Virus genome (UHGV): UHGV-0219032
Direction: 5' to 3' (one strand)
Length of the DNA stretch: 64,000 nucleotides
Source: a virus
Shown: positions 8,348 to 41,939 of the stretch, in pieces
Position numbering within the stretch: the first letter of the stretch is position 1
How the letters are laid out: each line of letters opens with the position of its first letter
Translations under genes and position numbers: made by a program
Notes under the pieces: model-generated
The model's database searches: none
Told to the model about the DNA's origin: nothing
Seen by the model: only the letters and a program-made list of their open reading frames with translations

Positions 8348-11300
8348 TTAAAATTCTACTTTACTCATAGATTTTATATAAGTATCAAATATTCCAGTTC
8401 CACCTTGCCATTTACCATCTACTAATTGTTTTCTTTCTTTAGTAATTTTATCATTTACAACTATAATATCATTATCATCTAATCCATCTAATATATCCTC
8501 TCTTTTAATTTTATATGTTTCAATCTCTCCATTTCTCATATTAAAACCTTTAAGGAAATATTGACTAGGAAATGGGTGTTCCAATGATAATACAAATAGT
8601 GCATCAAAATCTAACCAATCCATCTTTTTTGATGTTCTACCACATATCATTAGTTCATTTTTCATTTTTTCAACATATTCAAAATCATCTTCTGGATTTA
8701 ATATATTTATTTGTTCTTTAATTAAACTTATTTTTTTATCTTTAGTTTTTTGAGTTACTTTTTCGCTATATTTACAAGATTTATCATTAAAAAATATTTC
8801 AATAATATTCAATAAATATTTCTGTTTACCAAAATTTCTAAAAAAATCAATTTTAATTAATATTGATAAATCTTTTTGAGATAAAGATAATTTGTTTTCT
8901 TTAACAAATATTAATAAATCTAAGAATGTTCCAATATCATTTGGAATACATTTAAGAGCATTATCTGCATTTTTAGATACACCTTTTAATCCAGATAATC
9001 CTTCATATATAATATTTTTATCTTTATCATAAGAATATTCTTGAGAAAAGTTACCAAATACAGGTGATTCAATCACTATATCTGTTTCCTCTTTAATATA
9101 TGTATATATTGATTTTATTTTTTCTCTTTTACTTTTAAATGTATTTAATGATGCTGTTATAAATTCTTTTGGATAATAACATCTAAAATATGCACATAAA
9201 AATCCAGTAATAGTATATGGTCTTGCATGTGCAATATTGAAAGCATAGTTTTCAGCATCTCTCATTATTCTAGCTACATGATTTAAAACTTTATCTGTAT
9301 TTTCTCGAGTTTCTCCATAATGTTCCATAAAATATTTTGGGAATCTTTCCCTTAATTCTACTACTAATTTTTCAGTTCCGCCTTTTTTAGAAATTGTTTT
9401 TCTCGCATAGTCAGATTCAGCATTGGAATATCCACTAAATTCAGTTAAGAAATTCATAATATCTTCTTGATATATTAAATATCCATTATTATATGCAAAT
9501 CTCTTATTGACAATATCACTACCTGTATCATTTATTTTTCCACTAAATAATCCCTCTCTAATAGAATCTCCACATGGTCTAATAACTCCCGATACCGCTG
9601 TTGCGATATCTAACTTTTTCATTTTATCATTATTTTTCAAAGCTCTTTTTAAATGATTAAATGCTTGGTCTTTTTCAAATTGGAATATCATAGTTCCATG
9701 TTTAGAATTTAAAATATGATTCCAAACATTCATATCTTCAAAGTCTATATCATCTGGAGATGGTCTTTTAATACCTAAATATTCACATACTCTATTTATT
9801 GCTCCTATATTAGCTAATCCGAGAGCATCTACCTTTACATAACCCAACTCATCTACCTCTCTCATATCTAATTGAGTTACCCTTCTTCTTCTATTTAATT
9901 GTTTATCAAATGATGTTATGATTCCTATTTCTTTTTCTATATCTAAATCAGATACTAACATTCCACCAGCATGTATTCCAATAGACTTAATAAATCCATC
10001 TAAATCATCTACTTTTGCAAAGAAATCAGCATATTCTTCATCATCTCTATATTCACTAATATTTGCTAATATCTTTTCAACTTCACTTATTTCCATACCA
10101 TAACTTCTACCCATAGAACGAATAGCACCTTTTTCAAGGTCTTTACCAAATGTAATTATTTCAGAACAATTTAAACCATCTCTACCATAAAACCATTCTT
10201 TAGCTTCTTGTCTCCTATCACTTTCTATATCTGTATCAACATCGGGTAAACTTATTTTTTCTGGATTCATAAATCTAAAGAATAATGTTCCAAATTTAAT
10301 AGGGTCTATTTCTGTTATACCCATTAAATATGCAACTATTGAACCATTTACAGAACCTCTACCAAATCCTGGATATATACCATGTTCTCTTAATCCATTA
10401 ACCCAATCTGCAATCATTAACATATATGATGATGATTTAAGATTATGAATTACTTGAATTTCTTGTACAATTTTTTTAGCTATCTCATCAACACATTGAT
10501 TGCTATATACTGATAATTTCTTTTCATTAAATTTTTTTATACAAATTTCTGACATTTTTTTCGTTGCATCTTTATATATATTAGGCATTTTAAATCCTTT
10601 TTCTATGGTATATTCTTCAGCCATATCATATATTATATTTGTATTTTCTAATGCTTCTTTTGCTATTTCTGGAGATATACCAATATTTAATAATGCTGTG
10701 TACATTTCAGAATAACTTTTTAATTCTAAATCTAATCCATCTTCATAAGAGAATGGCATTTTTTCAGCCTTTTGTTTTTCTTTTCTTAATTCTCCAGACA
10801 TTTTATTATGATAATGAACGTCATTTGTAGCTACTATTTTAAATCCATATTCTCTACTTAGTTCAATAATAAAATTATTATGTTCGATTTGCTCTGACAT
10901 ATTATGTGGTTGTATCTCTAAGAAAAATCTATCTTTATTTTGTAACCCCCATTCTAATAATCTTTGGAAAACATAACTATCCTTATTATTTTTTCTTAAT
11001 GCTGTCGCTAAACATGCTGTTGATACCGCTACATTTTTACATTCAAATAATTCATCTATAAAAAATGTTGGTCTTTTATAAAAATGATTATCCTTATAAG
11101 CATTAGATATTAATTGATTTATTTCTTTTCTACCTTCATTATTTAATCCATAAACTAAAATATGATAGTTGTTTTTATCATCTTCATTAGCTCTAGTATA
11201 TCCTTCAAAAGCATGAACATATTTAAATCCACCCTCTTCTATTTCTTTTTTCTTTTTATACCAACCTAAAGTTGCTCCATGTTCAGTTATTATAATACCA

Positions 11301-23966: not shown

Positions 23967-24831
23967 TTAATTTTTTATTTTCCATTATTTTAGACACAGT
24001 AGTTATTTTATATTGTAATCCCATAATTTCTGAAGTAGTTAAATCAATATTATTGATTTTTACTATTTGTCCATTTGAATTTCTCTCTATATAATAACCA
24101 TCAATCATTTCTATATTATCTATTGGTTGAATTGGTGTTTCTTCAGATTTATTATTTTGAACACTCGCTCCTAATTGATTTTGTAACCAAGCTAAATCTT
24201 TAGCATTATTAGGGTTGAAATCAACCTTATTATCTGATGGCTGTTCAATAGCTTTATCATTATTTATTGATTTAGAAATATTTTTTAATAAATTTCCACT
24301 AGGTGAATTATAATTATCTGGAATAATATTTTTTGCAACATTTAAAGGATTTATTTTTTCTTCTTTTACTTCATGTATATGTTGATCTGGAACATATCTT
24401 GATTCAACATATATTTTTGGTTGCTCTGATAATTTATTTTCTAATTCTTTAATTTTATTATTTAATTCAACATTTTCATTTACTAATTTATTATTTTCTT
24501 TTTCTAATCTTTCTATTTCGCCTTGTAGATAATCAATATCACTTGTATCTTGTTGTATTCCTAGAATTTGAGTTTTTAAATCCTCATTTTCAGCTTTTAA
24601 CATATTATTTTCTTGAATTAATTTTTCGTGTTCAGATTTAATTCTCTCTAATTCAGATTTTACTTTTTCAATATTTTCCACATCAACCTTAAAACTAACT
24701 GTTTGTTCTTTTTTATCATCTTTTGGTAATAAACCAAAATCATTCATATTTTTTAATAAATTAAATAGTTTTTCAACTCCTTCATTACACTCCATTTTTA
24801 AACCATTTGGCATTTCTATTTTACAATTCAT
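23902..24831 (-). CDS. hypothetical coiled-coil protein
   Basis: Long heptad-like E/K/L-rich stretch (residues ~55-135). Confidence 0.35.
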   Translation of the reverse strand: MNCKIEMPNGLKMECNEGVEKLFNLLKNMNDFGLLPKDDKKEQTVSFKVDVENIEKVKSELERIKSEHEKLIQENNMLKAENEDLKTQILGIQQDTSDIDYLQGEIERLEKENNKLVNENVELNNKIKELENKLSEQPKIYVESRYVPDQHIHEVKEEKINPLNVAKNIIPDNYNSPSGNLLKNISKSINNDKAIEQPSDNKVDFNPNNAKDLAWLQNQLGASVQNNKSEETPIQPIDNIEMIDGYYIERNSNGQIVKINNIDLTTSEIMGLQYKITTVSKIMENKKLIEENDKANASMASGWGEQYGD

Positions 24832-24862
24832 TTTATTCCCTCCATTTTATTTAACTTTTATT

Positions 24863-24933
24863 TGAGAACAATAGGATTCGAACCTATATCCTTTACATAA
24901 AAAATGTATATTTTACCTTTAAACTATATTCTC
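24863..24933 (-). tRNA. tRNA, probably Lys (anticodon UUU), minus strand
   Basis: Hand-folded cloverleaf. Acceptor gagaata/tgttctc (with G-U), D-stem gttt/aaat, T-arm atagg-TTCGAAT-cctat, anticodon region tacat-ttttt(t)a-tgta. No encoded CCA. Confidence 0.5.
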
Positions 24934-24983
24934 ATACAAGACCCCAACTAAAGGGTCTAAATAAATAAACTAAATTTATCAAA

Positions 24984-25361
24984 TTATTTTTTATCTATAC
25001 ATGAACCATATATTTCATCATAATTATTTCCAACATAACATGATTCATCATTTTGTATTTCAACAATTTCAATTCCATACTCTTTAGCACAAGTATGTTC
25101 TATTCTACAACCTCTATATTTATCCCAACCTTTAGCAAATACAACTATATCAGCATTTGATAAAACTTGTAATGATTTACCTAAAAACCATAATGGTTTT
25201 GCATCATGTGGACAACCCTCAAAGAAACTATCTAAAATTTCAATTTCACCAAATTTTTCATTTAAATATTTAATAATTTTATTTCTTTCATTTTTAATTT
25301 CTATATCAGTTTTATCTTTCATTGGTTGACTTATAAAAACCTTTTTCATTAAAACCTCCAA
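24984..25361 (-). CDS. nucleoside 2-deoxyribosyltransferase-like protein (DUF4406/DUF1937-like)
   Basis: LWFLGKSL..L.NADIVVFAKGWDKYRGCRIE: pattern recalled from this family. Confidence 0.3.
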   Translation of the reverse strand: MEVLMKKVFISQPMKDKTDIEIKNERNKIIKYLNEKFGEIEILDSFFEGCPHDAKPLWFLGKSLQVLSNADIVVFAKGWDKYRGCRIEHTCAKEYGIEIVEIQNDESCYVGNNYDEIYGSCIDKK

Positions 25362-25426
25362 TCATATTTATATTTTAGGGTGTTGATATTTCACAACACC
25401 CATAAGAACTATTATTTTTTATTCAT

Positions 25427-25528
25427 TCCATTTCTTTCTCTAATAGTTCCCCATACAAATCCAGCAATTAATCCTATAACTAAACCTATTGCTATAAATC
25501 CAGCAGATGTCAAGGTAACACCCCCTTT
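25427..25528 (-). CDS. possible small membrane peptide (33 aa, TTG start)
   Basis: TTG preceded by aaagggggtg RBS; hydrophobic TSAGFIAIGLVIGLIAGFVWG; followed by GC-rich hairpin 25378-25401. Confidence 0.25.
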
Positions 25529-25550
25529 CTAATAAATATAATTATTTATA

Positions 25551-25826
25551 TTAATTAACTGATTCTTTTAATTCTTTTGATGGAGTAAATTTAATTTTCT
25601 TTCTAGCTGGTATTTGAACCTCCTCACCTGTTTGTGGATTTCTACCAACTCTAGCTTGTACATCAACTACTTCAAATTTTCCAAATCCAGTAATTGCTAA
25701 TGGATTATTATTAACAATACCATCTCTTATAATTTCAATTACACATTCAGCAATTTTAGTAGCATCTACTTTTGTTTTAGCTAATCCTTTTTCTACAATT
25801 TCTTCTACAAACTCTTTTTTAGTCAT
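25551..25826 (-). CDS. hup: HU/IHF-family DNA-binding protein
   Basis: GFGKFEVVDVQARVGRNPQTGEEVQIPARKKIKFTPSKELK: canonical HU arm motif; 91 aa. Confidence 0.85.
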   Translation of the reverse strand: MTKKEFVEEIVEKGLAKTKVDATKIAECVIEIIRDGIVNNNPLAITGFGKFEVVDVQARVGRNPQTGEEVQIPARKKIKFTPSKELKESVN

Positions 25827-25890
25827 TTATGACCCTCCTTATTTATTTTTGATATTTTAATTATAACATATTTTTAATTATTTTTCAAGT

Positions 25891-26448
25891 TTATTCACAA
25901 TATATTTCTAATTCAGAATCACTAAAATTTGTATTATCATTTATATCATTAGTGATTGGTATTTTTCCTTGTATTTGTTGATAATATGTTTCAAATTTAG
26001 TTGAATTAAATAATGTTTCTGGTCTTAAATACATATCCATATTAGTACCTAACCAATGTTCAACTTTTAAATCAATAACTTTCAACATATCATCATAAGA
26101 TACACCTTCTTTTAATCTAGCTTTAATAAATTTTAAGTTTGAATTGGTAAATCTATAATTTTTTCCAGCTTTTGAATTTAAATATAATAATACATTTTTT
26201 GAATCATTATCAAATATTAAATCATTGTTTGATTTTTGTTTTAATATCTTTTTAACCCAATCTCCAACTATATTAAATTCTTCTTGTTTTAATACTTTTT
26301 TAATTTTTCTAGCTTCCATACTACTTTGAATTTGTAAATCTTCCAATGTTAATTTGTTATAATTTTCTCCATGTTGAGCAATTATAATAAATAACATCTT
26401 TGATTCAGTAGAGAAATTAGTATGCAAAATATCACTTAAATCTAACAT
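25891..26448 (-). CDS. hypothetical protein
   Basis: ORF only. Confidence 0.3.
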   Translation of the reverse strand: MLDLSDILHTNFSTESKMLFIIIAQHGENYNKLTLEDLQIQSSMEARKIKKVLKQEEFNIVGDWVKKILKQKSNNDLIFDNDSKNVLLYLNSKAGKNYRFTNSNLKFIKARLKEGVSYDDMLKVIDLKVEHWLGTNMDMYLRPETLFNSTKFETYYQQIQGKIPITNDINDNTNFSDSELEIYCE

Positions 26449-26455
26449 ATTCCTC

Positions 26456-26716
26456 CTATCTTAAAATACCTATTCTATATAAGAATTTTATAAAACTACA
26501 AAATAAACCATCTGTACTATGTAAATCTGAAAATCCACCAAAAGTTGTTTGTTTATATACTTGATTATATAATGCCTTTTTAGGATTTTTTATTACACCC
26601 ATACCTTTTTTACCATATAATGGGTCTATACTTCTTTTAAAATTTCTTTTTACTTGAGATGTAGTAGCTCCCATTATTGATTTCTTTAAACTTGGTTTTC
26701 TCATACCTATTTTCAT
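26456..26716 (-). CDS. hypothetical basic protein
   Basis: ORF with RBS aaggag downstream of consensus promoter. Confidence 0.35.
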   Translation of the reverse strand: MKIGMRKPSLKKSIMGATTSQVKRNFKRSIDPLYGKKGMGVIKNPKKALYNQVYKQTTFGGFSDLHSTDGLFCSFIKFLYRIGILR

Positions 26717-26749
26717 ATTAACTCAACTCCTTATATATTTCTTAATTAT

Positions 26750-26778
26750 ATTATACAAGGAGTTGAATAATTTGTCAA
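26750..26778 (-). promoter_or_regulatory. sigma70-type promoter (TTGACA-N17-TATAAT) with -10 bracketed by a 10-bp inverted repeat
   Basis: Reverse complement ttgacaaattattcaactccttgtataat; IR tcaactcctt (26723-26732) / aaggagttga (26757-26766). Confidence 0.55.
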
Positions 26779-26785
26779 GAATTAT

Positions 26786-29326
26786 TTAGAATGATTTTTC
26801 TTGAATACTCTCTGTAAAACCAACCTCAAATAATGTTCCAAATTCTCCATTAAATTGATAAATAGTTGGAACTATTTTTGCACCATATCTATTCTTAGGC
26901 AAAAAGAATACAAGATATTTTTTATTACTTTCTAGCTCTTTAAACTCTTTTACGTATTTTCCAGTTATTTCATCTTTTTTTATTTTAAATACTTTAATTT
27001 CATTCTTTTGACCTGGATATTCATCTGGGTATAACTCTCTTCCAGTTATTAAAATATCTAAAATTTCAACTATTTGTTTAGAGCCAGATAGACAAGATTC
27101 ATCATATATTCTTTTCATGTTTTGCTTTAAATATGATGCTATTTGATAAGATGCCATAACATGAACATTTAATTTTCTAGCTAACTCATATATATTTCTT
27201 GATTGCTGAACCAGTTTACCAACAGCAAGTTTATCTCCAGCATCTTCTGATTTCATGGTGTCTATTAAAAATTTAGTAAATCCCTTATGTGAGAATCTTC
27301 TCATAAGAATATTAAATTCAGCTATACTATATCTACTTACACAATATAAAACTAATTTATCATTATAAGTAACATCAATATATCTTTGAGCTTCGGCAAT
27401 TTTCATCATATATTCTTCATACTTTTCTTTTTCTTTTGTTTTTATCATATCCAATTCATTTAATTTTGTTCTGGTTAAATCATAATACTTTAAGTGTTTT
27501 GTTAATGTTCTTATTAATAACATATCCTTAAAATCATCTATTGCTGATTCATTGGAGTATATAAAAACTTTTTCTCCTTTATCTAAGAAATCTAACATAA
27601 TTTCATTATAGTTAATTGTAGTATTATGAGTTACAATCATATTATCTGTTAGGTATGTATGAGTTGGAGAATCAACCATTATACATTGCATTTCTTTTTC
27701 TCCAATATATTCTATGTTAGTTATAGCTAATAAATCTGTTCTTCTTTTTATCTTTCTATTTTGTGGAACTCTTGATTTATGTTTATCAGAATAAAATATT
27801 TCATCATAAGTTGAAATATTAACTATATAGCATTTTCCAAATTTATAATCTCTATTATCCTCTGTGTATGTTGCTCTATACCCCAATGTATGACACAATT
27901 GAATAATATCATCTCTTAACCTAATTGACGTGGTTGTTATGTTTTTATTCCCGCTGATAGAATTTACACAACCATCTGTATCGAATAATCCTCTTAATAA
28001 ATCCATTCTCTGCTCTATCGAACCACTCATGTACTCAATAGGTATAAATTTTTCATGACTTCCCAATCCGAAAACTTGCAATCTTTTTAACTCTCTAATT
28101 ATGTCATTTTTTAATGGGTTGGTCTGATTGCTAATATTATATGTATAGTTATTTGCATTATTTTTTGTAATTTTATAACCCATAGGTAATCTCTGTTTTA
28201 TTCTCTCAACAATATCTAACTCATTACAAGAAAATTCAATTCTAGTTTTTATACTTCCATCTCCTAATAGACAGCCAAAGATATATGGGTCTATAAAATA
28301 TTCTTTTTGTGTATATTGTAATGGTTTATTAACAGGAATAAAAGTCTGATATGTATTTCCAGATATAATTTTTCTTTTCATTATTTCTTTTAATGTTTGA
28401 ACTCTCCAATCATATTTCCCATTCTTTAATCTCCATAAATTATTATTTACCCATAAATGCTCATCACAACACTCGACAGTTGAGCCATCTTTGAATGTAA
28501 TTTTATATGATGGTTTCATACCCTGAGGGAATATTCCAGTTACATTATGAAGTTCTCCATTCATATCGTATATTTTATCGCCAATTTTAATATCTCCCAT
28601 TCTAACATAACCATTTTTCGTAAACACAAGACTATCAAGAGGTTGTGCTTTACCATTATTCGTTGGCATAGCCAACATAGACATATTACCATTGTGCATA
28701 CCTCTAGTAGCTTTACTAATTGAGAATAGATTATAAGACATTCCTCTACCGACACCATTAATTTTAGATTGTATATAATCATTATCTATTCTTAATATAA
28801 CAGGTTTAGTAGTGCTTACATCATTACAATCTCTAGCTGTTTCCAATGTATCTTCAATCTTAAAAATAATATCTTCCAACGATTTTGTTTCTATATCATT
28901 ATGTAACATACATATAGCTTCATACAATCCTCTATAAGTAGCTAATTTAGCATTAGCTTTCATTAATCCCTCAAAATGTGTTTCAAAGTTATTTGGAGAG
29001 AAATTTCTTCTTAAAGAATTTAAATGACCCATACCATTTAATGATATAAAATCATTTTTAAATTGTTCCCCTAATCTACTTAAAGCGGATTGTACACTAC
29101 CAGTATCAAATTCTGTTGCTTTATGATTATACATATCATTTAATAAATCATAATATGCTAAACCATCTTTTGTATGGAATAGATTTCTTCTACCTTGTAC
29201 CTCAACCATTAAAGATAAATCATTAACTAGAGTTCCTATTACTCTAGCTTCATGGTCTGGAATTTCACTACATAAATGTTGTGGGTATTCTATTTGCATA
29301 TTATTATACGTAAATGTTAAATTCAT
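26786..29326 (-). CDS. DnaB-like replicative helicase precursor containing an intein with LAGLIDADG endonuclease domain
   Basis: Extein Walker A LAMPTNNGK|...|TT (spliced PTNNGKTT). Insert has intein blocks and two LAGLIDADG motifs (YIFGCLLGDGS, RGLFDTDGCV). It ends MIVTHN followed by T. Confidence 0.65.
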   Translation of the reverse strand: MNLTFTYNNMQIEYPQHLCSEIPDHEARVIGTLVNDLSLMVEVQGRRNLFHTKDGLAYYDLLNDMYNHKATEFDTGSVQSALSRLGEQFKNDFISLNGMGHLNSLRRNFSPNNFETHFEGLMKANAKLATYRGLYEAICMLHNDIETKSLEDIIFKIEDTLETARDCNDVSTTKPVILRIDNDYIQSKINGVGRGMSYNLFSISKATRGMHNGNMSMLAMPTNNGKAQPLDSLVFTKNGYVRMGDIKIGDKIYDMNGELHNVTGIFPQGMKPSYKITFKDGSTVECCDEHLWVNNNLWRLKNGKYDWRVQTLKEIMKRKIISGNTYQTFIPVNKPLQYTQKEYFIDPYIFGCLLGDGSIKTRIEFSCNELDIVERIKQRLPMGYKITKNNANNYTYNISNQTNPLKNDIIRELKRLQVFGLGSHEKFIPIEYMSGSIEQRMDLLRGLFDTDGCVNSISGNKNITTTSIRLRDDIIQLCHTLGYRATYTEDNRDYKFGKCYIVNISTYDEIFYSDKHKSRVPQNRKIKRRTDLLAITNIEYIGEKEMQCIMVDSPTHTYLTDNMIVTHNTTINYNEIMLDFLDKGEKVFIYSNESAIDDFKDMLLIRTLTKHLKYYDLTRTKLNELDMIKTKEKEKYEEYMMKIAEAQRYIDVTYNDKLVLYCVSRYSIAEFNILMRRFSHKGFTKFLIDTMKSEDAGDKLAVGKLVQQSRNIYELARKLNVHVMASYQIASYLKQNMKRIYDESCLSGSKQIVEILDILITGRELYPDEYPGQKNEIKVFKIKKDEITGKYVKEFKELESNKKYLVFFLPKNRYGAKIVPTIYQFNGEFGTLFEVGFTESIQEKSF
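27623..28648 (-). mobile_element. intein (about 342 aa, begins with Ala; LAGLIDADG homing endonuclease domain) within helicase P-loop
   Basis: Boundaries inferred: AQPLDSLVFTKNGYVRMGDIKIGDKIY (N-terminal splicing block) to ...IVTHN|T. Confidence 0.6.
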
Positions 29327-29353
29327 TATATCACCTCATATTAGAAAAGGCTC

Positions 29354-29713
29354 TTATTGAGCCTTTATTTCCAATAATTTTTTATATATTTCTACCAATT
29401 TATCATCAAATTTTAACTTTTTAAATTCTTCAATAGATAAATCTTTTTCTGGTTCACAATAAGTTTTATTAATGTGTTCAATAAGTGCTTCTAATTTTTC
29501 AATATTATCTACATTAATAATTTTATCATCTTCTGTATGATTTAATATAGCTATAAAATCAATACCCATGCCAGTTCTACTTAAAATAACTTTACTTGTT
29601 CCATTTTCAATAATTTCTCTTAATCTTTCATAATCATTACATACAATGGTAACTAATTTTAAATCCTCTCTACCTTCAATATTTGAAAATTTTAAATCTA
29701 ATAATTTTTGCAT
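29354..29713 (-). CDS. hypothetical protein
   Basis: ORF only. Confidence 0.3.
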   Translation of the reverse strand: MQKLLDLKFSNIEGREDLKLVTIVCNDYERLREIIENGTSKVILSRTGMGIDFIAILNHTEDDKIINVDNIEKLEALIEHINKTYCEPEKDLSIEEFKKLKFDDKLVEIYKKLLEIKAQ

Positions 29714-29760
29714 AATTATACCTCCTAAGTTTTATTTTTATTATATCATATTTTTATATT

Positions 29761-30939
29761 TTATGCAACACATTCTTCTGTTTCTGAATCTTCATATAAT
29801 TTAACTTTTAATTCAAATCCTTTTATTTTACAATATTTCTTAATAAATGAATATTCTTCTTGATTTGGATTTCTATTATACATTCCTTTTATTTGAACAA
29901 TAGCATTATCACTTTCTCTATATTCCATTGTTATGAAAGATTCTTCTGGTTTTTCTCTCATAAATAAAATATGACATTTATTATCAATAACATGTTCTAT
30001 ATAACTTTTTACACAATGATGTAAATTTTCTCCTTCTTGTTTAACTTCATATGTTGTATATGGAATAGATACAAAATATTTTTTATCATTATATATAAAA
30101 TCTTTTTCAGTATATTTACTTCTAAATAAATTTTCATCATAAGTTTCCCTAAAAATACTATATTGTTTAGAAATTATATCATGATTTGATTTTAAATATT
30201 TTGGGTATTTTTCTATTGATTTAATAGATTTATATGTTCCATCTGATTTTCTAAGCATCTGTTTTTTCATTCTATAATAATCTATTAAAAAGCTAGTTGC
30301 ATTATCCCAATTTATATTTTCATATTCACGAATATAATTTAAATATTTAATTAAATGTATATGATTATAATTATATTCATTAATTAATCTTGATATACGG
30401 TGTACATAATCTTCATAATAATTAGACATAAAGTTTTCATTTAATTCAATATGAGCCATAACTATTTTATGAAATGTTTTATTATATATAGAATTAATAT
30501 CACTAAGTTGATAATTAATTTTACCTAAATATTTTAATATATTTTTAGGGCAATTTTCATATTCTTGACCTTCATAATGATATATTGAAAATTTAGTTAA
30601 TTGAGATAAATCAATACCATAAGACATTAATGATTCAAAATTCGAGTGATATTTTATTTTTGATAATAAATTACCTATACTATTAATGTTCCTTCCAGTT
30701 TGTCTACAATGTTTTCTTATTAATTTTAATAATTGATATAAAATTTTATCATTTTCAAATAATTTTTCAACTTCATAAATTCTCATATTTTTAAAATACA
30801 TAGCTAAACTTTTTCTTTGTTCATATTCTTTTTTTCCTTTTGGTATTACCCACATAGTTCCATCTTTTAAACTAAATTTTGCTTTACCTCTGTTTTCATC
30901 TTCAAAATATAAAATTCCATTTTCTTTTCTTAATTCCAT
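29761..30939 (-). CDS. PcfJ-like protein
   Basis: C-terminal EGENLHHCVKSYIEHV...ILFMRE...IVQIKGMYNRNP resembles the PcfJ family core (recalled, not searched). Confidence 0.35.
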   Translation of the reverse strand: MELRKENGILYFEDENRGKAKFSLKDGTMWVIPKGKKEYEQRKSLAMYFKNMRIYEVEKLFENDKILYQLLKLIRKHCRQTGRNINSIGNLLSKIKYHSNFESLMSYGIDLSQLTKFSIYHYEGQEYENCPKNILKYLGKINYQLSDINSIYNKTFHKIVMAHIELNENFMSNYYEDYVHRISRLINEYNYNHIHLIKYLNYIREYENINWDNATSFLIDYYRMKKQMLRKSDGTYKSIKSIEKYPKYLKSNHDIISKQYSIFRETYDENLFRSKYTEKDFIYNDKKYFVSIPYTTYEVKQEGENLHHCVKSYIEHVIDNKCHILFMREKPEESFITMEYRESDNAIVQIKGMYNRNPNQEEYSFIKKYCKIKGFELKVKLYEDSETEECVA

Positions 30940-31017
30940 TTTAATCTTCTCCTTATCTCACTTCCGACACAAATGATACAACAGAACATTTGAGGTCTCC
31001 GCTTTATTGATACTGTA

Positions 31018-31046
31018 ATTATACAACAAAAATTATTTTATGTCAA
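31018..31046 (-). promoter_or_regulatory. sigma70-type promoter (TTGACA-N17-TATAAT) for leftward operon
   Basis: Reverse complement ttgacataaaataatttttgttgtataat. Confidence 0.55.
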
Positions 31047-31337
31047 TATATTTTTTAAAATTATTTTATGACCTTTTAAAATCCATTTTAAAGAGTTTAT
31101 ATTTAATAGTAGACTAATTTATTATTGAAATGTTTGTAGGGGTGTTATCTTTGGGATAGTAAGGTGTCAGTTTAAATTTATGTGGTAAAATACTCCCGGA
31201 TTTTTTTACTTAAAATCAAAAATCTTTTCACAAAAAGTTTTTGCATTTTTAAGTGGAAATATTAGTTTTCTTTTAGTAATAATATTAGTATTGACAGCGT
31301 ATTACCTTGTCTATCTAAGGGAAAACGTGAAATCGGG

Positions 31338-31393
31338 TCACACTTAGTTACCAAAAATCACACTTAGTTACCTTTAAATCACACTTAGTTACC
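31338..31393 (+). repeat. three direct 15-bp iterons (tcacacttagttacc) spaced 20-21 bp
   Basis: Exact copies at 31338-31352, 31358-31372, 31379-31393, just upstream of the rightward promoter. Confidence 0.8.
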
Positions 31394-31421
31394 AAAGATA
31401 AAAAATACATAAATCATTATA

Positions 31422-31450
31422 TTGACAAAAATGTAATATTATGCTATAAT
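31422..31450 (+). promoter_or_regulatory. near-consensus sigma70 promoter: TTGACA-N17-TGcTATAAT (extended -10)
   Basis: ttgacaaaaatgtaatattatgctataat; drives rightward operon starting 31481. Confidence 0.65.
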
Positions 31451-31480
31451 AATTTTATAGAATAATATTGGAGGGAATAT

Positions 31481-31723
31481 ATGAGTAAAATTATTAAAAG
31501 AGTATTTAGCAAATCGAAAGCAAATGATTTAATTTCTATGGGTAATACTCTGTTAAAAACAGAAAAAGATTATATAAAACCAAAAAGAGAAATTTATATA
31601 TTTGAAAGAACTGATAAATTAATCAAAGATTTGTCCGCTCTTCATAATATATATATAAAAAATAAAACAATAGGAGTGCGAAATGAAAAATATAATAGTG
31701 GAAAATTATTTAACAATTCATAA
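31481..31723 (+). CDS. hypothetical protein (80 aa)
   Basis: First ORF after promoter, RBS ggaggg. Confidence 0.35.
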   Translation: MSKIIKRVFSKSKANDLISMGNTLLKTEKDYIKPKREIYIFERTDKLIKDLSALHNIYIKNKTIGVRNEKYNSGKLFNNS

Positions 31724-32498
31724 AGAATTAATAGGAAAACAAATTAATTTATCAAAACCAAATTCTATATTATTATTTATGGAAGTTTGTAGAATAAAAC
31801 AAATGGAGATTAAAGCATTACAAAATAATTTCCAAAAAAATATAGATAATGATTTAATAATTAATAAGAGTAGATTGGAAAATATAATTGATAAAGCATT
31901 AATAAAACAAAATATAAAAATTCAAAATCTTATTGATGATTTTAATAATGGCTCATACTTCATAAATAAAGATGGAGAGATTATTGAAATCATAGAATTT
32001 ATAAATTTTTATAAAAATACTGGAGAAATTGAAGTAGTATTTAATATGGAAAATTTTATAAAATATTTTATAAATATAAAAGACAATTTTACAAAATTAC
32101 CATTAGAATATTTTAAGGGGATTAAAAGTAAAAATGTTACTATGTTGTTAATGTATATAATGAAATATAGTAATGTGAAAAATGTATTTATACCAAATAG
32201 TGATTTATTATTTTTATTAAATATAAATAAAAATAATAAATTATCTCACTTGAATCAATCTATAAAAAGAGTCATAGAACAAATTAAAAAAATAAATTTA
32301 GATGAGTTAAAAAAATTAAATATAGAAAAGAATAAAAATAATAACTTTGATATTAAATTTTCTAGTTTTGAAATAAATATTATAATGGAAAATAAAAAAG
32401 ATATAATTATTAAAAAAACAGAAAATAAAAAAGATGAAAATTGCAATTTTACAGAGAGTGAATTAGCAATTTATACAGGAGGTTATAATGATAATTGA
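31683..32498 (+). CDS. hypothetical protein, candidate iteron-binding replication initiator (Rep_3-like?)
   Basis: Position directly downstream of iterons; N-terminus VENYLTIHKELIG...SILLFMEVCRI loosely resembles plasmid Rep N-termini. Weak. Confidence 0.25.
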   Translation: MKNIIVENYLTIHKELIGKQINLSKPNSILLFMEVCRIKQMEIKALQNNFQKNIDNDLIINKSRLENIIDKALIKQNIKIQNLIDDFNNGSYFINKDGEIIEIIEFINFYKNTGEIEVVFNMENFIKYFINIKDNFTKLPLEYFKGIKSKNVTMLLMYIMKYSNVKNVFIPNSDLLFLLNINKNNKLSHLNQSIKRVIEQIKKINLDELKKLNIEKNKNNNFDIKFSSFEINIIMENKKDIIIKKTENKKDENCNFTESELAIYTGGYNDN

Positions 32499-32790
32499 TT
32501 CAAAAATTAAAGGTGTTGTATGGATAAACAATTCAAAGAATAGCAAATATTCAAATGGTATTATTTATGCTACATGTGGAAAACAAATTAAATTTATTCA
32601 TTTTAAAGAGACAGATGATTTGTATGTCAATTTAAATAAAGAAGAAGATAAATATGATACTTATGTTGGAAAGGCTAAAATTTTTGGTTTTAAAAATAAA
32701 CTAAAAAATAAATTAACAAGTCCAGATTTCTACCTAACAAGAATAAGTATTGAGTTTATAGATGTTGGAAATATAGAGGAAGAAATATAA
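32488..32790 (+). CDS. hypothetical protein (100 aa)
   Basis: ORF with RBS aggagg. Confidence 0.3.
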   Translation: MIIDSKIKGVVWINNSKNSKYSNGIIYATCGKQIKFIHFKETDDLYVNLNKEEDKYDTYVGKAKIFGFKNKLKNKLTSPDFYLTRISIEFIDVGNIEEEI

Positions 32791-32878
32791 CTATTAATTA
32801 TAATATGTACTTGAATAGTAAATAAAATTATGATATAATTAATTTGCATTTATATTTTAGAAGAATAATATTCAAAGA

Positions 32879-32905
32879 ATTAAGAGAGAGAAATCTCTCT
32901 TTTTT
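32879..32905 (+). terminator. rho-independent terminator
   Basis: agagagagaaatctctct followed by ttttttc. Confidence 0.55.
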
Positions 32906-32960
32906 CTTTACTTTTAATATAAAATATGGTATAATATTGTAAAATATAGGAGGTATAAAT

Positions 32961-35522
32961 ATGGGATTAACAGAGGAACAAAAGCAAATATTAAGTTGCA
33001 CAAACAATGGTTTAATTATTGTAAATGCTCTAGCTGGAACAGGAAAAACAAGTACACTATTAGAATGGTGCAAACAAAAACCACATCTAAAAATACTATA
33101 TTTGGTCTTTGGCAAAGCTATGAGTGACGAGGCTAAAAAAATGTTTAAGGATTTAAAAAATGTTCATGTTAAAACTACTCATTCTTTGGCATTTAAAAGT
33201 TTTGGAGTTAAATATAAATCAAAATTAACTCAATCATATAGAGCAATAGATTGTATGAGAGATTTAGATTTGAATGGTGATTATGATACAGCTAATAGTG
33301 TATTATCATTATTTAATAAATTTTTATCTAGTGATAGTGATGATATATATAAATTTACACAAACTATACTTAGAGGATATGGAATTAGAAATGAACATAA
33401 AATTAATAGCTTATCTAAATTATGTGATAAGTTATGGAAAAAATCTATTGATTTAAATGATGACACTCAAGTAGTACATGATTTTTATTTAAAGTTATAC
33501 CAAATGTCAAAACCTAATCTTGGATTAGAATATGATGTTATGATGGTAGATGAGTGTGTACATGGTGATATGTATGTTGTTACAGATGAAGGAGATAAAA
33601 AGATAAGTGTATTACATGATAAATTTCAAAGTGGAAAAAATGTACCTAAAATTTTAAGTTATAATGAAAATCTTGGTATATATGAATATAAAGATATGAA
33701 TTTTTCAAAAGTTACACATAACAGAGAAATATTAACTATAAAAACAGAAGGTTTAAATATTATAAAAGTTACTGGAAATCACCCAATACTTACACAGAGG
33801 GGATATGTTGAAGCAGACCAATTAATATGTGGAAGTGATTATGTATTTTTAGATACACCACAAAACCAAAAAACAAAAATCGTATTAAATGACGACCAAA
33901 CACAAATAGTTATTGGTAGCTTTTTGGGAGATGGAACTATTGACAAAAGAAGTCAATATAATACTTATAGAGTGAGTTTTACACATGGAGAAAAACAAAA
34001 AAAATATTTAGAGTGGAAAACAAAAATGTTTAATATAGATGGTATAAAAAATATAAAAAGTGGATATACTGGTAAGAATAATATTTATCAAAGTAATCCA
34101 AGTAAAACATTTATCTTAAATGAAGATTTAATTAGATTATGTCATGATATGGATTCGAGAGCTTTGGCAATATGGTATATGGATGACGGTAGTTACTCAA
34201 ATGAAAGCGGTTGTTGTGCAATACATTCTAATGCTTTTGGAAAAGATGAACATTTATTGTTTCAATTTATATTAAAAAATAATTTTGGAATACATGCAGA
34301 AATTAGCATAACTAAAGGTTATTATTATTTACGTTTTAATAAATCAGAATCTCAAAAATTACTTATGTTAATTAAACCATACATGCACGAAGATTTATAC
34401 TATAAAAATCCATTATGTTATCATGATAATTTTCAAAAATATCAATGGAATAATAAATTTAAGGCATATGGTGGTAATTTCATTATATCAATAGAATCAT
34501 CTGAATATGGTGATGTTTATGATATAGGTGTAGAAGATAATCATAATTTCATTATAAAATCCACACCAAGTAAATGTAGTAGAAAAACAACTGGTGTTAT
34601 AGTTCATAATTGTCAAGACAGTACACTAACTATTAAAGGTATAATAGACTCATCAAAGGATAAATTAAAACAAGTGATACTCATAGGAGACCCACACCAA
34701 AGTATATTTCAATTTAGAAACTGTGTTAATTTAATTGAGATATATTCAAAAGAAGCTACAAATTATGATTTAACAGGAAGTTTTAGGGTAAATCAAAATA
34801 TAGCTAATATGTGTAATATGCTATTGGATATGTTTAAAAGAAAAAAAGTTCACATGAATGGATATAATAAAAATCAAAAAATATATTCTGATAAAGGTTT
34901 AAATTTTGAAAATATGCAAAGTCAATTCAACATTATAACTAGAACTAATGCAACTATATTGGCTCATGCCATAGAAGCATCTATGAGAGGTAAATGGCTT
35001 TATTTTGAAGGTGGATATAATAGTTATCCATTTCAATTTTATAAAGATTTATATTGGTTTAGAGCAACAAATCAAACATATAATAAGGAACTTAATAAAT
35101 TTAAAGATTGGGAAGAGTTACAACAATATGCAACTGAAGCTGATGATATAGAATTATTAACAGGAATAAAATTTATTAATATGTATTCAAGTAAAGTTGA
35201 TAGTTTACCTAATGCTATTGATAATGTAAAAAATTATGTTGTATCTAAGAGAGAACAAGCTAATTTCTGTTATTGTACAGCACATAAAAGTAAAGGTTTA
35301 ACTTTTGAAACACCAACATTAATTGAGAAAGATTTTCCTCATTTAATAGATTGGCAAAAAACAATGACTAATATTATATCTATGTCTCATATTTATCCAG
35401 ATGCTTTAGATAAATTTCTAAAAGATATTGAACAAGATGTAAACCTTGCATATGTAGCTATTACTCGTGCTAAGGGTGATATATATTTAAATGAAGATAT
35501 GGTTAAATTTTTTAATTTATAA
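32961..35522 (+). CDS. SF1 UvrD/PcrA-like DNA helicase precursor containing an intein with LAGLIDADG endonuclease domain
   Basis: Walker A NALAGTGKTSTL. Motif II split: MMVDE|C...intein...VHN|CQDS (spliced VDECQD). Intein has SFLGDGTIDK and LAIWYMDDGSYS motifs and a C-terminal block GDVYDIGVEDNHNF...VIVHN. Confidence 0.65.
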   Translation: MGLTEEQKQILSCTNNGLIIVNALAGTGKTSTLLEWCKQKPHLKILYLVFGKAMSDEAKKMFKDLKNVHVKTTHSLAFKSFGVKYKSKLTQSYRAIDCMRDLDLNGDYDTANSVLSLFNKFLSSDSDDIYKFTQTILRGYGIRNEHKINSLSKLCDKLWKKSIDLNDDTQVVHDFYLKLYQMSKPNLGLEYDVMMVDECVHGDMYVVTDEGDKKISVLHDKFQSGKNVPKILSYNENLGIYEYKDMNFSKVTHNREILTIKTEGLNIIKVTGNHPILTQRGYVEADQLICGSDYVFLDTPQNQKTKIVLNDDQTQIVIGSFLGDGTIDKRSQYNTYRVSFTHGEKQKKYLEWKTKMFNIDGIKNIKSGYTGKNNIYQSNPSKTFILNEDLIRLCHDMDSRALAIWYMDDGSYSNESGCCAIHSNAFGKDEHLLFQFILKNNFGIHAEISITKGYYYLRFNKSESQKLLMLIKPYMHEDLYYKNPLCYHDNFQKYQWNNKFKAYGGNFIISIESSEYGDVYDIGVEDNHNFIIKSTPSKCSRKTTGVIVHNCQDSTLTIKGIIDSSKDKLKQVILIGDPHQSIFQFRNCVNLIEIYSKEATNYDLTGSFRVNQNIANMCNMLLDMFKRKKVHMNGYNKNQKIYSDKGLNFENMQSQFNIITRTNATILAHAIEASMRGKWLYFEGGYNSYPFQFYKDLYWFRATNQTYNKELNKFKDWEELQQYATEADDIELLTGIKFINMYSSKVDSLPNAIDNVKNYVVSKREQANFCYCTAHKSKGLTFETPTLIEKDFPHLIDWQKTMTNIISMSHIYPDALDKFLKDIEQDVNLAYVAITRAKGDIYLNEDMVKFFNL
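33555..34610 (+). mobile_element. intein (about 352 aa, Cys1...Asn; LAGLIDADG) inserted in helicase motif II
   Basis: Starts CVHGDMYVVTDEGDKKISVL, ends TGVIVHN; +1 residue Cys. Confidence 0.6.
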
Positions 35523-35562
35523 TTGACATAACATTTTTCTCGTCAGTATTATGTGAAAGAGA
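35516..35562 (+). promoter_or_regulatory. 47-bp conserved promoter/leader element, copy 1 (TTGACA-N18-TATTAT)
   Basis: Identical to 41893-41939: tttataattgacataacatttttctcgtcagtattatgtgaaagaga. Confidence 0.55.
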
Positions 35563-35770: not shown

Positions 35771-35846
35771 TGGGTTGTAGCTCAATAGGTAGAGCATTGG
35801 TCTGTTAAACCAAATGTAGAGGGTTCGATTCCCTCCAACCCAGCCA
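35771..35846 (+). tRNA. tRNA-Asn (GTT), CCA encoded
   Basis: Cloverleaf folded by hand. Acceptor tgggttg/caaccca, anticodon loop ctgttaa, T-arm gaggg-TTCGATT-ccctc. Confidence 0.75.
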
Positions 35847-35851
35847 AATAT

Positions 35852-35939
35852 GGTAGGTTATCCTAAATGGCTAAGGAGCTGGTCTTGAAAACCAGTAAAT
35901 GTGAAAGCATGTAAGAGTTCGAGTCTCTTACCTACCTCC
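35852..35939 (+). tRNA. tRNA-Ser (TGA), long variable arm, CCA encoded
   Basis: Acceptor ggtaggt/acctacc, anticodon loop cttgaaa, long extra arm, T-loop TTCGAGT. Confidence 0.7.
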
Positions 35940-35943
35940 ATAA

Positions 35944-36032
35944 TATGTAGTTGGTGGAATTGGAATACACGTGGTGCTTAGAACACCATTCTTAAAAAGA
36001 TTGAGAGTTCAAATCTCTCACTACATACCAAT
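35944..36032 (+). tRNA. tRNA-Leu (TAG), long variable arm, CCA encoded
   Basis: Acceptor atgtagt/actacat, anticodon loop cttagaa, T-arm gagag-TTCAAAT-ctctc. Confidence 0.7.
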
Positions 36033-36034
36033 AG

Positions 36035-36106
36035 ATGTGTAGTTTAATGTAAAACATCAGACTCCAAATCTGAAAGTTATGGGTTCGAGTCCTATCGCAT
36101 CTGCCA
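36035..36106 (+). tRNA. tRNA-Trp (CCA), CCA encoded
   Basis: Acceptor agatgtg/cgcatct, anticodon stem tcaga/tctga with loop ctccaaa, T-loop TTCGAGT. Confidence 0.7.
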
Positions 36107-36199
36107 TAAAAGTTATTAATGAAAGGTACATACAGCAATTAATTAATTTTCTATAAATAATGGTTTTAGGGATAGAATAGAATATAGTACCTTGAAATT

Positions 36200-36751
36200 T
36201 TGGGTTTTAACTGTATTATAAGGGAAGTGATATATATTAATAATATAGTTTATATAAAACATTTTGATAATGGTAAGAAATATATTGGTATAACAAATAA
36301 TTTTAAAAGAAGAATGTATGAACATATAAAAAGTGCATATAAAAATAATAGTAAACTTCCTGTACATAATGCCATGAGAAAATATAATCATACAACAGAA
36401 ATTGTATTTATGAGTAACTGTTATGATGATGTTTTAAAAATGGAAAAGATTATTATAAAAAATTTTAAAGATATTGGAATTGATTTATATAATATTACAG
36501 ATGGAGGAGAAGGAAGTTTAGGATTAAAAGTATCAAATGAAACAAAATTAAAAATTAGTAATTCTTTAAAGGGAAATAATAATCCACGTTCAAGAACTAA
36601 AGAACATTATGCTATAACTCCAACTATGAGAAATAATTTTAAGACTACATGTAAACGTATGGGTTGGGATTTTAATTATTTTATTGAAGTATATAGCGGT
36701 CAAAATAGTCATGAACATAAAAAGTATTATTATATTGAAAAATTTATGTAA
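36200..36751 (+). CDS. GIY-YIG homing endonuclease with NUMOD3-like motif, inserted in tRNA cluster (start codon uncertain, TTG/GTG)
   Basis: VYIKHFDNGKKYIGITNNFKRRMYEH (GIY...YIG...R...E), NITDGGEG; ETKLKISNSLKG (NUMOD3-like). Confidence 0.7.
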   Translation: MGFNCIIREVIYINNIVYIKHFDNGKKYIGITNNFKRRMYEHIKSAYKNNSKLPVHNAMRKYNHTTEIVFMSNCYDDVLKMEKIIIKNFKDIGIDLYNITDGGEGSLGLKVSNETKLKISNSLKGNNNPRSRTKEHYAITPTMRNNFKTTCKRMGWDFNYFIEVYSGQNSHEHKKYYYIEKFM

Positions 36752-36755
36752 AACC

Positions 36756-36801
36756 GGCTGTTTAAGTACATAACTTGGTTCGATTCCAAGAACACTCACC
36801 A
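36756..36801 (+). other. orphan 3' half of a tRNA (T-arm + acceptor 3' strand + CCA) with no matching 5' half nearby
   Basis: cttgg-TTCGATT-ccaag aacactc a CCA. The required 5' acceptor gagtgtt is not found within 700 bp upstream. Confidence 0.5.
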
Positions 36802-36804
36802 TAT

Positions 36805-36877
36805 GCCTATATAGTTCAGTTGGTAGAACAAGGGTGCAGAAACACCCATGTCGCTGGTTCGACTCTAGTTATAGGCA
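36805..36877 (+). tRNA. tRNA-like gene with aberrant anticodon arm (6-nt loop cagaaa closed by gggtg/caccc); possibly Phe-like or a pseudo-tRNA
   Basis: Good acceptor gcctata/tataggc, D-arm gttc-agttggta-gaac and T-loop TTCGACT. Anticodon region does not fit a 5-bp stem plus 7-nt loop. Confidence 0.45.
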
Positions 36878-36979
36878 ACACTCGGTTGGTAGACCCGTAA
36901 AACTACCAAATTGCTCATATACCAAGTGTATAATGAGATACCAGCTCGACAATGTCAGAACTGGCTTTTATAATTAAAT

Positions 36980-37053
36980 GGGGATTTCGCCTAAAAGTAG
37001 GGCAATAGTCTGCAAAACTATTTGAAGCGGGGCAGTACCGCTAATCCCCTCCA
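36980..37053 (+). tRNA. tRNA-Cys (GCA) with non-canonical T-loop (ggcagta), CCA encoded
   Basis: Acceptor ggggatt/aatcccc, anticodon stem atagt/actat with loop ctgcaaa. Confidence 0.6.
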
Positions 37054-37057
37054 AAAA

Positions 37058-37132
37058 TGTGGGTTAGAGTAGTGGTTACTCATTAGTCTCATAAGATAAT
37101 TTAGGTCAGTTCAATTCTGACACCCGTAACCA
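37058..37132 (+). tRNA. tRNA with CAT anticodon (Met/fMet or Ile2), CCA encoded
   Basis: Anticodon loop ctcataa, D-arm gagt/actc, T-arm gtcag-TTCAATT-ctgac. Acceptor has two G-U pairs; anticodon stem one mismatch. Confidence 0.55.
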
Positions 37133-37136
37133 ATGT

Positions 37137-37225
37137 GATAGTGTAACCCTAATAGTAAGGGAACAGTTTGCTAAACTGTGAGTAGTGTTTTACACGTGTT
37201 GGTGCAAGTCCAATCGCTATCGCCA
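37137..37225 (+). tRNA. tRNA-Ser (GCT), long variable arm, CCA encoded
   Basis: Anticodon stem acagt/actgt with loop ttgctaa, extra arm gtgt-ttt-acac, acceptor gatagtg/cgctatc. Confidence 0.6.
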
Positions 37226-37229
37226 ATAT

Positions 37230-37304
37230 TTCGAGATAGCCAAGCGGTAAGGCAACGGATTTTGACTCCGTCATGCGAATGTTCAAATCATTCTCTCGAA
37301 ACCA
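37230..37304 (+). tRNA. tRNA-Gln (TTG), CCA encoded
   Basis: Acceptor ttcgaga/tctcgaa, anticodon stem acgga/tccgt with loop ttttgac, T-arm gaatg-TTCAAAT-cattc. Confidence 0.7.
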
Positions 37305-41892: not shown

Positions 41893-41939
41893 TTTATAAT
41901 TGACATAACATTTTTCTCGTCAGTATTATGTGAAAGAGA
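41893..41939 (+). promoter_or_regulatory. 47-bp conserved promoter/leader element, copy 2
   Basis: Identical to 35516-35562; followed by RBS agagagg and ATG at 41946. Confidence 0.55.

Follow-up and report, generated by a model that had tools for sequence, protein, structure and literature searches.

A probable class 3 intein with a LAGLIDADG endonuclease domain at the P-loop of a DnaB-like helicase in an AT-rich phage

Introduction

How can an intein leave its host protein when its first residue offers no nucleophile, and to which class does such an element belong? The question is raised by the virus genome UHGV-0219032, studied here as one stretch of 64,000 nucleotides (the window). Its minus strand encodes a precursor of 846 residues (26786..29326, including the stop codon) in which an insert of 342 residues splits the Walker A motif, or P-loop, of a DnaB-like replicative helicase. 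An earlier reading made from the sequence alone (the original prediction) took the insert for an intein beginning with Ala, and suggested that it belongs to class 2 or else is impaired in splicing.

Class 3 inteins are defined by a non-nucleophilic residue 1 (PMC2807308) and by the WCT triplet, composed of Trp B:12, Cys F:4 and Thr G:5 (PMC2807308, PMC5050341, PMC4031507, PMC5222942). They carry Thr or Ser at position +1 (PMC2807308; PMC5050341), and they are usually, although not by strict definition, located in helicase or terminase genes, frequently those of phages, at the ATPase P-loop (PMC2807308, PMC5050341). Further marks of the class are an obligate Cys F:4 nucleophile and a branched intermediate at block F, which have been probed by mutation and trapping in MP-Be DnaB, Dra Snf2 and Msm DnaBi1. 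Class 2 comprises the archaeal KlbA orthologues, in which the WCT triplet is missing and which are marked by Ala1, Thr B:7, Asp F:4, Ser G:6 and Cys+1 (PMC4031507, PMC2807308). Here we present evidence from sequence comparison and structure prediction that the insert is very probably a full-length intein of class 3, equipped with a LAGLIDADG homing endonuclease and placed at the "classic" P-loop site in the DnaB-like helicase of an AT-rich phage.

Boundaries of the insert

A homologue search against 5.8 billion proteins yielded a 99%-identical intein-bearing copy of the precursor from a different sample (P0001), more diverged intein-bearing orthologues (P0002-P0004, 61-67% identical), and six orthologues of 503-504 residues from which the insert is missing (P0005-P0007 and P0009-P0011). 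Among the latter, P0005 (504 residues) is 99.6% identical to the conceptual spliced extein and reads PTNNGKTTINYNE, with the Walker A sequence PTNNGKTTINY. It is encoded by a 39.8-kb metagenomic phage contig, L003, with a DNA identity to the window of 98.7% upstream and 99.5% downstream. In the pairwise alignment of the two, the single large gap is exactly 28648..27623 of the window (1026 bases), and the intein-less sequence around the junction is ...CCAACGAATAATGGTAAA/ACTACAATTAACTATAAT... (a slash marks a splice junction or insertion point throughout). Since no residues are repeated across the junctions (GK/A...N/T), in protein or in DNA, the boundaries are unambiguous.

The precursor is thus divided into an N-extein (residues 1-226; 28649..29326, minus strand, as are all features of this gene) whose last residues (...AMPTNNGK) form the first part of Walker A, the insert (residues 227-568; 27623..28648), and a C-extein (residues 569-846 plus stop; 26786..27622) that starts with the Thr completing the motif (GK/TT). 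The N-extein is collinear with the intein-free allele. In the translated precursor, the N-terminal junction reads ...MLAMPTNNGK/AQPLDSLVFTKNG... and the C-terminal junction ...DNMIVTHN/TTINYNE....

An Ala start could be an artefact of boundary placement, with a class 1 intein truly beginning at a nearby Ser or Cys, and the close relative P0004 does have Ser at that position. Such a start is next to inconceivable, however, because the intein-free allele fixes both junctions at the level of protein and DNA, and alternative class 1 boundaries were rejected on this basis. In addition, block A (AQPLDSLVFTKNG, 28610..28648, with the Ala codon at 28646..28648) aligns without gaps, from position 1, with the starts of the class 3 inteins of phage Bethlehem (PLALNTEVPT) and Mycobacterium smegmatis (Msm) DnaBi1 (ALALD).

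The insert lies in frame within the Walker A loop, preceded by its Lys and followed by its Thr (PTNNGK/.../TTINY). Its deletion gives a 504-residue protein whose helicase ATPase domain is again continuous and whose Walker A motif reads MPTNNGKTT. In the spliced extein, 235 of the 255 positions of the Pfam DnaB_C profile are matched (36.7 bits, 3.8e-9; gathering cut-off 27), as against 17.4 bits, under the cut-off, for the unspliced precursor, where otherwise only LAGLIDADG_3 and Hom_end are seen; in annotation pipelines the helicase would therefore be under-called as long as the intein is left in. Against PHROG families, the intein-free allele gives a match to number 19, "DnaB-like replicative helicase" (6.8e-25). 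Its sequence matches in the PDB are to DnaB helicases only and are weak (E about 0.03), in an alignment that puts AMPTNNGKTTINYN on DnaB AARPSMGKTTFAMN and Walker A NNGKTT on SMGKTT. No Pfam match to the DnaB N-terminal domain was found in the host protein, and NCBIfam equivalog models score far under their cut-offs (TIGR03600 phage_DnaB, 26 bits vs 499), for which reasons DnaB-like is the label we use, and not DnaB equivalog. Insertion after the invariant Lys and before the Thr of Walker A corresponds to the "classic" P-loop site of Kelley et al. (PMC5050341). Insert and N-extein do not differ in G+C content (0.284 and 0.282), and tblastn of the window gave no further copies of the 342-residue intein.

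Splicing and endonuclease motifs

Splicing blocks A (AQPLDS...), B (CDEHLW), F (QCIMVDSPTHTY) and G (IVTHN/T) are found in the insert, which has a His-Asn end and a nucleophilic +1 residue; because residue 1 is Ala, there is no N-terminal nucleophile. As placed by alignment, the core of block B (CDEHLW, 28451..28468) comprises Cys61 (B:7), His64 (B:10) and Trp66 (B:12, the W of WCT). Block F (EMQCIMVDSPTHTYLT, 27647..27694) holds Cys322 (F:4; codon 27683..27685), the predicted initiating nucleophile, and block G (NMIVTHN/T, 27620..27643) contributes Thr340 (G:5), His341, Asn342 and Thr+1. Read with one more residue, block B is CCDEHLW, with a Cys60-Cys61 pair at B:6-7 (28466..28471, minus strand). 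The two LAGLIDADG motifs are IFGCLLGDG (28256..28282), with the predicted catalytic Asp130, and LRGLFDTDG (27971..27997), with the predicted catalytic Asp225. Both Pfam endonuclease families score above their cut-offs: LAGLIDADG_3 at intein residues 213-280 (1.6e-10, 41.5 bits vs 22.5) and Hom_end (4.7e-6, 27.1 bits vs 21.1).

The motifs do not arise by chance, and the relation to known inteins extends to proteins of solved structure. A phmmer search of all PDB sequences returned the gp41-1 intein, both as an engineered WCT variant (6riz, 5e-11) and as wild type (6qaz, 5e-9), the class 3 inteins M. smegmatis DnaBi1 (6bs8, 1.5e-6) and M. chimaera DnaB1 (6rix, 6riy), and PI-SceI (3e-4). An AlphaFold2 model of the intein, built from a 67-sequence alignment, is confident throughout, with a mean predicted local distance difference test score of 96.2 and a predicted template modelling (TM) score of 0.93. 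Compared with the PDB by Foldseek, the entire model matches the bifunctional inteins PI-SceI (TM up to 0.78), TliVMA, PhoVMA and PI-PfuI, its splicing half resembles MchDnaB1 and Msm DnaBi1, two mini-inteins of class 3 (target-normalised TM about 0.8), and its middle part matches I-DmoI; the hedgehog autoprocessing domain, which shares the HINT fold, was also matched. By sequence and predicted structure, the insert is a full-length intein, made up of a HINT splicing domain and an inserted, predicted double-motif LAGLIDADG homing endonuclease. Much of the original prediction is borne out by these results. The insert occupies 27623-28648 of the 846-residue minus-strand reading frame to the base, starts with Ala, has the splicing blocks and HINT fold of an intein together with both LAGLIDADG motifs, and interrupts a DnaB-like helicase at the Walker A P-loop, which its removal restores. 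The comparison with intein-free homologues, in which the 342 residues are not kept as a structural domain, confirms the insertion point as well.

Class assignment

The class of the intein was assessed in a MAFFT alignment of 116 inteins, consisting of the window intein, the Bethlehem prototype and 114 relatives. Trp66, Cys322 and Thr340 share columns with Trp67, Cys320 and Thr339 of Bethlehem, where Cys320 is absolutely required for splicing (PMC2807308). His B:10, Cys F:4 and the C-terminal Thr, His and Asn are each present in all 116 sequences, and Trp B:12 in 114. Ala1 is found in 99 of the 116 and Pro3 in 96, whereas B:7 is Cys in 70. The first predicted endonuclease residue is Asp in 93/116; the second is Asp in 93/116 and Glu in 11/116. 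Position +1, Thr569 in the window, is occupied by Thr in 109 of the 114 relatives and by Ser in 5, and in 95 of the 114 Gly-Lys directly precedes the intein (GK, then T or S of the P-loop). An additional 169 inteins, taken from 128 cluster representatives, give the same picture, with THN in 167, Thr or Ser at +1 in 165, Ala1 in 102 and GK in 95.

All sequence-level characteristics of class 3 are therefore found in the window intein, which has the Ala1 of class 2 as well. It is this residue, as seen in KlbA inteins (PMC4031507), that had suggested a KlbA-type, class 2 intein. Against this stand the presence of WCT, Thr+1, Cys F:4, Cys B:7 and His G:6 and a helicase as host; moreover, a Thr hydroxyl is poorly suited to attack an amide directly. 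Four of the defining features of class 2 are absent, the class 2 reading was rejected on these grounds, and we consider it extremely unlikely. The signature formed by the WCT triplet, Cys F:4, His G:6 and Thr+1 is that of class 3.

The second suggestion of the original prediction, a splicing-impaired or decaying intein, fares little better and is very unlikely. Loss of Cys1 or Ser1 would on this account have left the helicase gene dead or reliant on another helicase, and it is true that the canonical N-terminal nucleophile is missing and that the window encodes a second, UvrD-like helicase. On the other hand, the frame is intact, the catalytic residues for splicing and endonuclease are all present and are invariant or nearly so in the 116 inteins, the AlphaFold2 model shows no weak region, and the P-loop of the helicase would stay broken without splicing of the intein. 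A 99%-identical copy exists elsewhere (P0001), and inteins of 60-66% identity keep their motifs in the diverged helicases P0002-P0004 and P0008; together, these indicate purifying selection. From the alignment, Ala1 is the norm of this family and not a lesion.

One relative departs from the norm. In P0004 (842 residues; intein at residues 228-568), the intein is 61% identical to that of the window and occupies the same GK/T site, and it starts with Ser (GK/SAPFVS...) and has Gly at B:7, with Trp, Cys, Thr, His-Asn and Thr+1 all retained. A Ser1 with an otherwise unchanged signature fits the idea that residue 1 is mechanistically dispensable, and P0004 provides a natural test case for whether this residue matters in the lineage.

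Relatives and mobility

Inteins of this type are abundant. A HMMER scan of 1.84 billion cluster representatives gave 18,642 proteins at E<=1e-3, of which 13,058 are at <=1e-10 and 4,611 at <=1e-30, and tblastn located the type in 845 deposited phage genomes, 264 of them from mycobacteriophages. Relatives occupy the same GK/T or GK/S site in DnaB-like, PhoH, ClpB-like AAA+, SNF2, ResIII, primase-helicase and terminase proteins. The same arrangement is seen in the helicase of an isolated phage, Eggerthella phage LE2-3 (GKGK/AQPLYS...IVTHN/T).

Over the clade of the host helicase, the distribution of the intein is sporadic. In addition to the window and L003, a second, independent pair of alleles with and without intein is formed by P0002 and P0007, with an extein identity of 97%. 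In P0008, the intein is 61% identical to the window intein and the exteins just 27-43%; this higher conservation of the intein relative to its host protein indicates lateral movement between diverged helicase genes. The indirect evidence bearing on homing consists of two allele pairs in 97-99% identical hosts, the sporadic distribution, and an intein that has diverged less than its exteins.

Genome context

The helicase gene is part of a replication module, with a PcfJ-like protein encoded upstream and a DnaD-like loader or initiator, an HU-like protein and tRNA-Lys downstream, followed further on by Pol III alpha and the anaerobic ribonucleotide reductase NrdD. Tail-fibre genes and a transfer RNA (tRNA) cluster elsewhere in the window identify it as a phage genome. 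A megablast search with window positions 24000-32000 against 50,697 phage records gave no match, and the intein was matched at the protein level only; the phage is therefore without a close sequenced isolate.

A second, unrelated intein of 352 residues is found at 33555..34610 (plus strand), in an open reading frame (32961..35522) for a UvrD-like helicase. It is a class 1 intein (Cys1, ...VIVHN/C+1) with a LAGLIDADG_2 endonuclease, the Pfam families Intein_splicing and LAGLIDADG_2 both scoring above cut-off, and it splits helicase motif II (Walker B; ...VMMVDE/CVHGD...HN/CQDST). This intein is also present in L003, the contig without the DnaB-like intein.

Two further differences between the window and L003 were noticed. 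About 375 nucleotides containing an open reading frame of 125 residues (24984..25361, minus strand; PHROG 355, "nucleoside 2-deoxyribosyltransferase", 1.2e-17) are present in the window and missing from L003 between positions 8569 and 8573, a second indel polymorphism. The only stretch around the helicase without DNA similarity is 31148..32947 of the window versus 2616..3814 of L003. Both versions encode a Rep3_N-type initiator (271 residues in the window, 286 in L003), which suggests, from the sequences, that a replication-initiator module has been swapped between near-identical phages.

ARAGORN reports eight tRNA genes, including a cluster at 35771..37304 (plus strand) for Asn, Ser, Leu, Trp, Met and Gln, the tRNA-Lys at 24862..24934 (minus strand), and an odd call at 36804..36879 with a two-base anticodon ("ga"). 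An exact direct repeat of 47 base pairs, TTTATAATTGACATAACATTTTTCTCGTCAGTATTATGTGAAAGAGA, is found at 35516..35562 and 41893..41939 (plus strand), one copy upstream of the tRNA cluster and the other just before an ATG at about 41946. It holds a sigma-70-like sequence, TTGACA-18 nt-TATTAT, and is probably a duplicated phage promoter.

Discussion

The published class 3 pathway (PMC2807308, PMC4031507, PMC5222942), when applied to the residues of the window intein, suggests how an element without an N-terminal nucleophile would splice. The 846-residue precursor with its split P-loop is presumably dead as an ATPase, by analogy with a P-loop RadA intein (cited in PMC6195587). The thiol of Cys322 (F:4), aided by His64 and Trp66 of the variant block B, would attack the amide between Lys226 and Ala227 and take over the N-extein as a thioester, which constitutes the block F branched intermediate. 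The N-extein would then pass to the hydroxyl of Thr569 (+1) to form the standard block G branched ester, Asn342 would cyclise with the assistance of His341 to free the intein, and an O-to-N acyl shift would establish the Lys-Thr peptide bond of a 504-residue helicase with an intact MPTNNGKTT loop. The freed intein, with Asp130 and Asp225, is expected to cut alleles that lack it in co-infecting relatives, at about ...AATGGTAAA/ACTACAATT..., and would be copied in when the cut allele is repaired by recombination. Both the splicing chemistry and the endonuclease activity are predicted from the residues present.

Some observations weigh against this reading. Position B:7 is Cys here, compared to Ser in Bethlehem and Asp in Msm DnaBi1; in class 1 inteins, it is normally Thr. 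When WCT was grafted onto gp41-1, a related intein of class 1, no class 3 intein proficient in splicing resulted (PMC7664689); the triplet by itself is therefore no guarantee of mechanism. Finally, no co-conversion tract was found beside the insertion in the comparison of the window with L003, where the nearest differences are 25 nucleotides upstream and 210 nucleotides downstream.

Among characterised inteins, the class 3 prototype from phage Bethlehem is similar in overall design. It was recovered from the genome as residues 141-481 of gp11 (AY500153, 7260-9971), in which the published numbering (Ser62, Trp67, Cys320, Phe330, Thr339, His340, Asn341) is correct throughout. Like the window intein, it is a full-length phage intein (341 residues) with a LAGLIDADG endonuclease and no N-terminal nucleophile, and it has Trp B:12, Cys F:4, Thr G:5, a His-Asn end and Thr+1. 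The two are only 26% identical, however, and the Bethlehem intein starts with Pro instead of Ala, has Ser instead of Cys at B:7, and resides in a different protein at a different site, its N-extein ending in ...SQDQ without a GK P-loop. The 903-residue gp11, which holds this "MP-Be DnaB intein", is annotated as hypothetical and adjoins the portal gene; the Bethlehem gene that is annotated as a DnaB-like helicase (gp62, 273 residues) was checked and contains no intein.

The site and the first residue of the window intein are shared with Msm DnaBi1 and M. chimaera DnaB1 (6bs8, 6rix, 6riy), class 3 inteins with Ala1 and WCT that follow GK in the P-loop of DnaB. For Msm DnaBi1, location at GK/T of the mycobacterial DnaB is documented (PMC6195587), and a published primer sequence encodes GK-ALALD (PMC7664689). 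In contrast to the window intein, these are mini-inteins of ~139-146 residues that have lost the endonuclease, are bacterial chromosomal and have Asp at B:7. The best sequence match of solved structure, gp41-1 (6qaz; WCT variant 6riz), likewise comes from a phage-type replicative helicase and has Thr G:5 and EHL in block B. It is, however, a naturally split class 1 intein (Cys1, Phe B:12, Asp F:4) without endonuclease and at another insertion site, and it has served as an argument against a simple interconversion of class 1 and class 3 (PMC7664689). The best fold matches to the whole model, PI-SceI (Sce VMA1) and PI-PfuI, share the HINT domain with an inserted double-motif LAGLIDADG endonuclease, but are class 1 (Cys1, Cys+1), reside in V-ATPase and ribonucleotide reductase and are ~16% identical. 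The class 2 KlbA intein of Methanocaldococcus jannaschii is similar in its Ala1 and in the lack of an N-terminal nucleophile and differs in having no WCT, in Asp F:4, Thr B:7, Ser G:6 and Cys+1, and in its mechanism (PMC4031507).

A more speculative idea, which we rate as unlikely, is that the intein doubles as a redox switch beside its life as a selfish element. Position B:7 lines the active site, so that Cys61 is expected beside Cys322 and is a candidate partner for a reversible Cys61-Cys322 disulfide. Msm DnaBi1 is redox-regulated via Cys48-Cys118, although its Cys48 is without evident counterpart in the window intein. If true, the redox state would gate maturation of the replicative helicase, and hence replication, in a phage with an anaerobic ribonucleotide reductase, and the system would be the phage counterpart of the Msm DnaBi1 oxidative-stress toggle, based on a different cysteine.

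In conclusion, the window element is a clean but ordinary example of class 3 and not a new kind of element. Class 3 inteins, the WCT triplet, their phage origin, their preference for Lys/Thr in the P-loop and several structures have been published since 2009-2011, examples at P-loops of phage proteins and helicases being on record since 2010, and with thousands of relatives in sequence databases the finding carries little weight as a discovery. Its practical value is modest, and lies first in correcting the class assignment, from class 2 to class 3. Of mild interest are the clean natural pair of alleles, the presence in this phage of another helicase with an unrelated intein of class 1, the Cys at B:7 and the Cys-Cys pair, which are not seen in characterised prototypes, and the close resemblance in sequence to gp41-1, an intein of class 1. 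The matched alleles with and without intein in 99%-identical phages define the homing site and the native exteins, and make the locus a useful source when a full-length class 3 intein of low-GC phage origin, its endonuclease apparently intact, is wanted.

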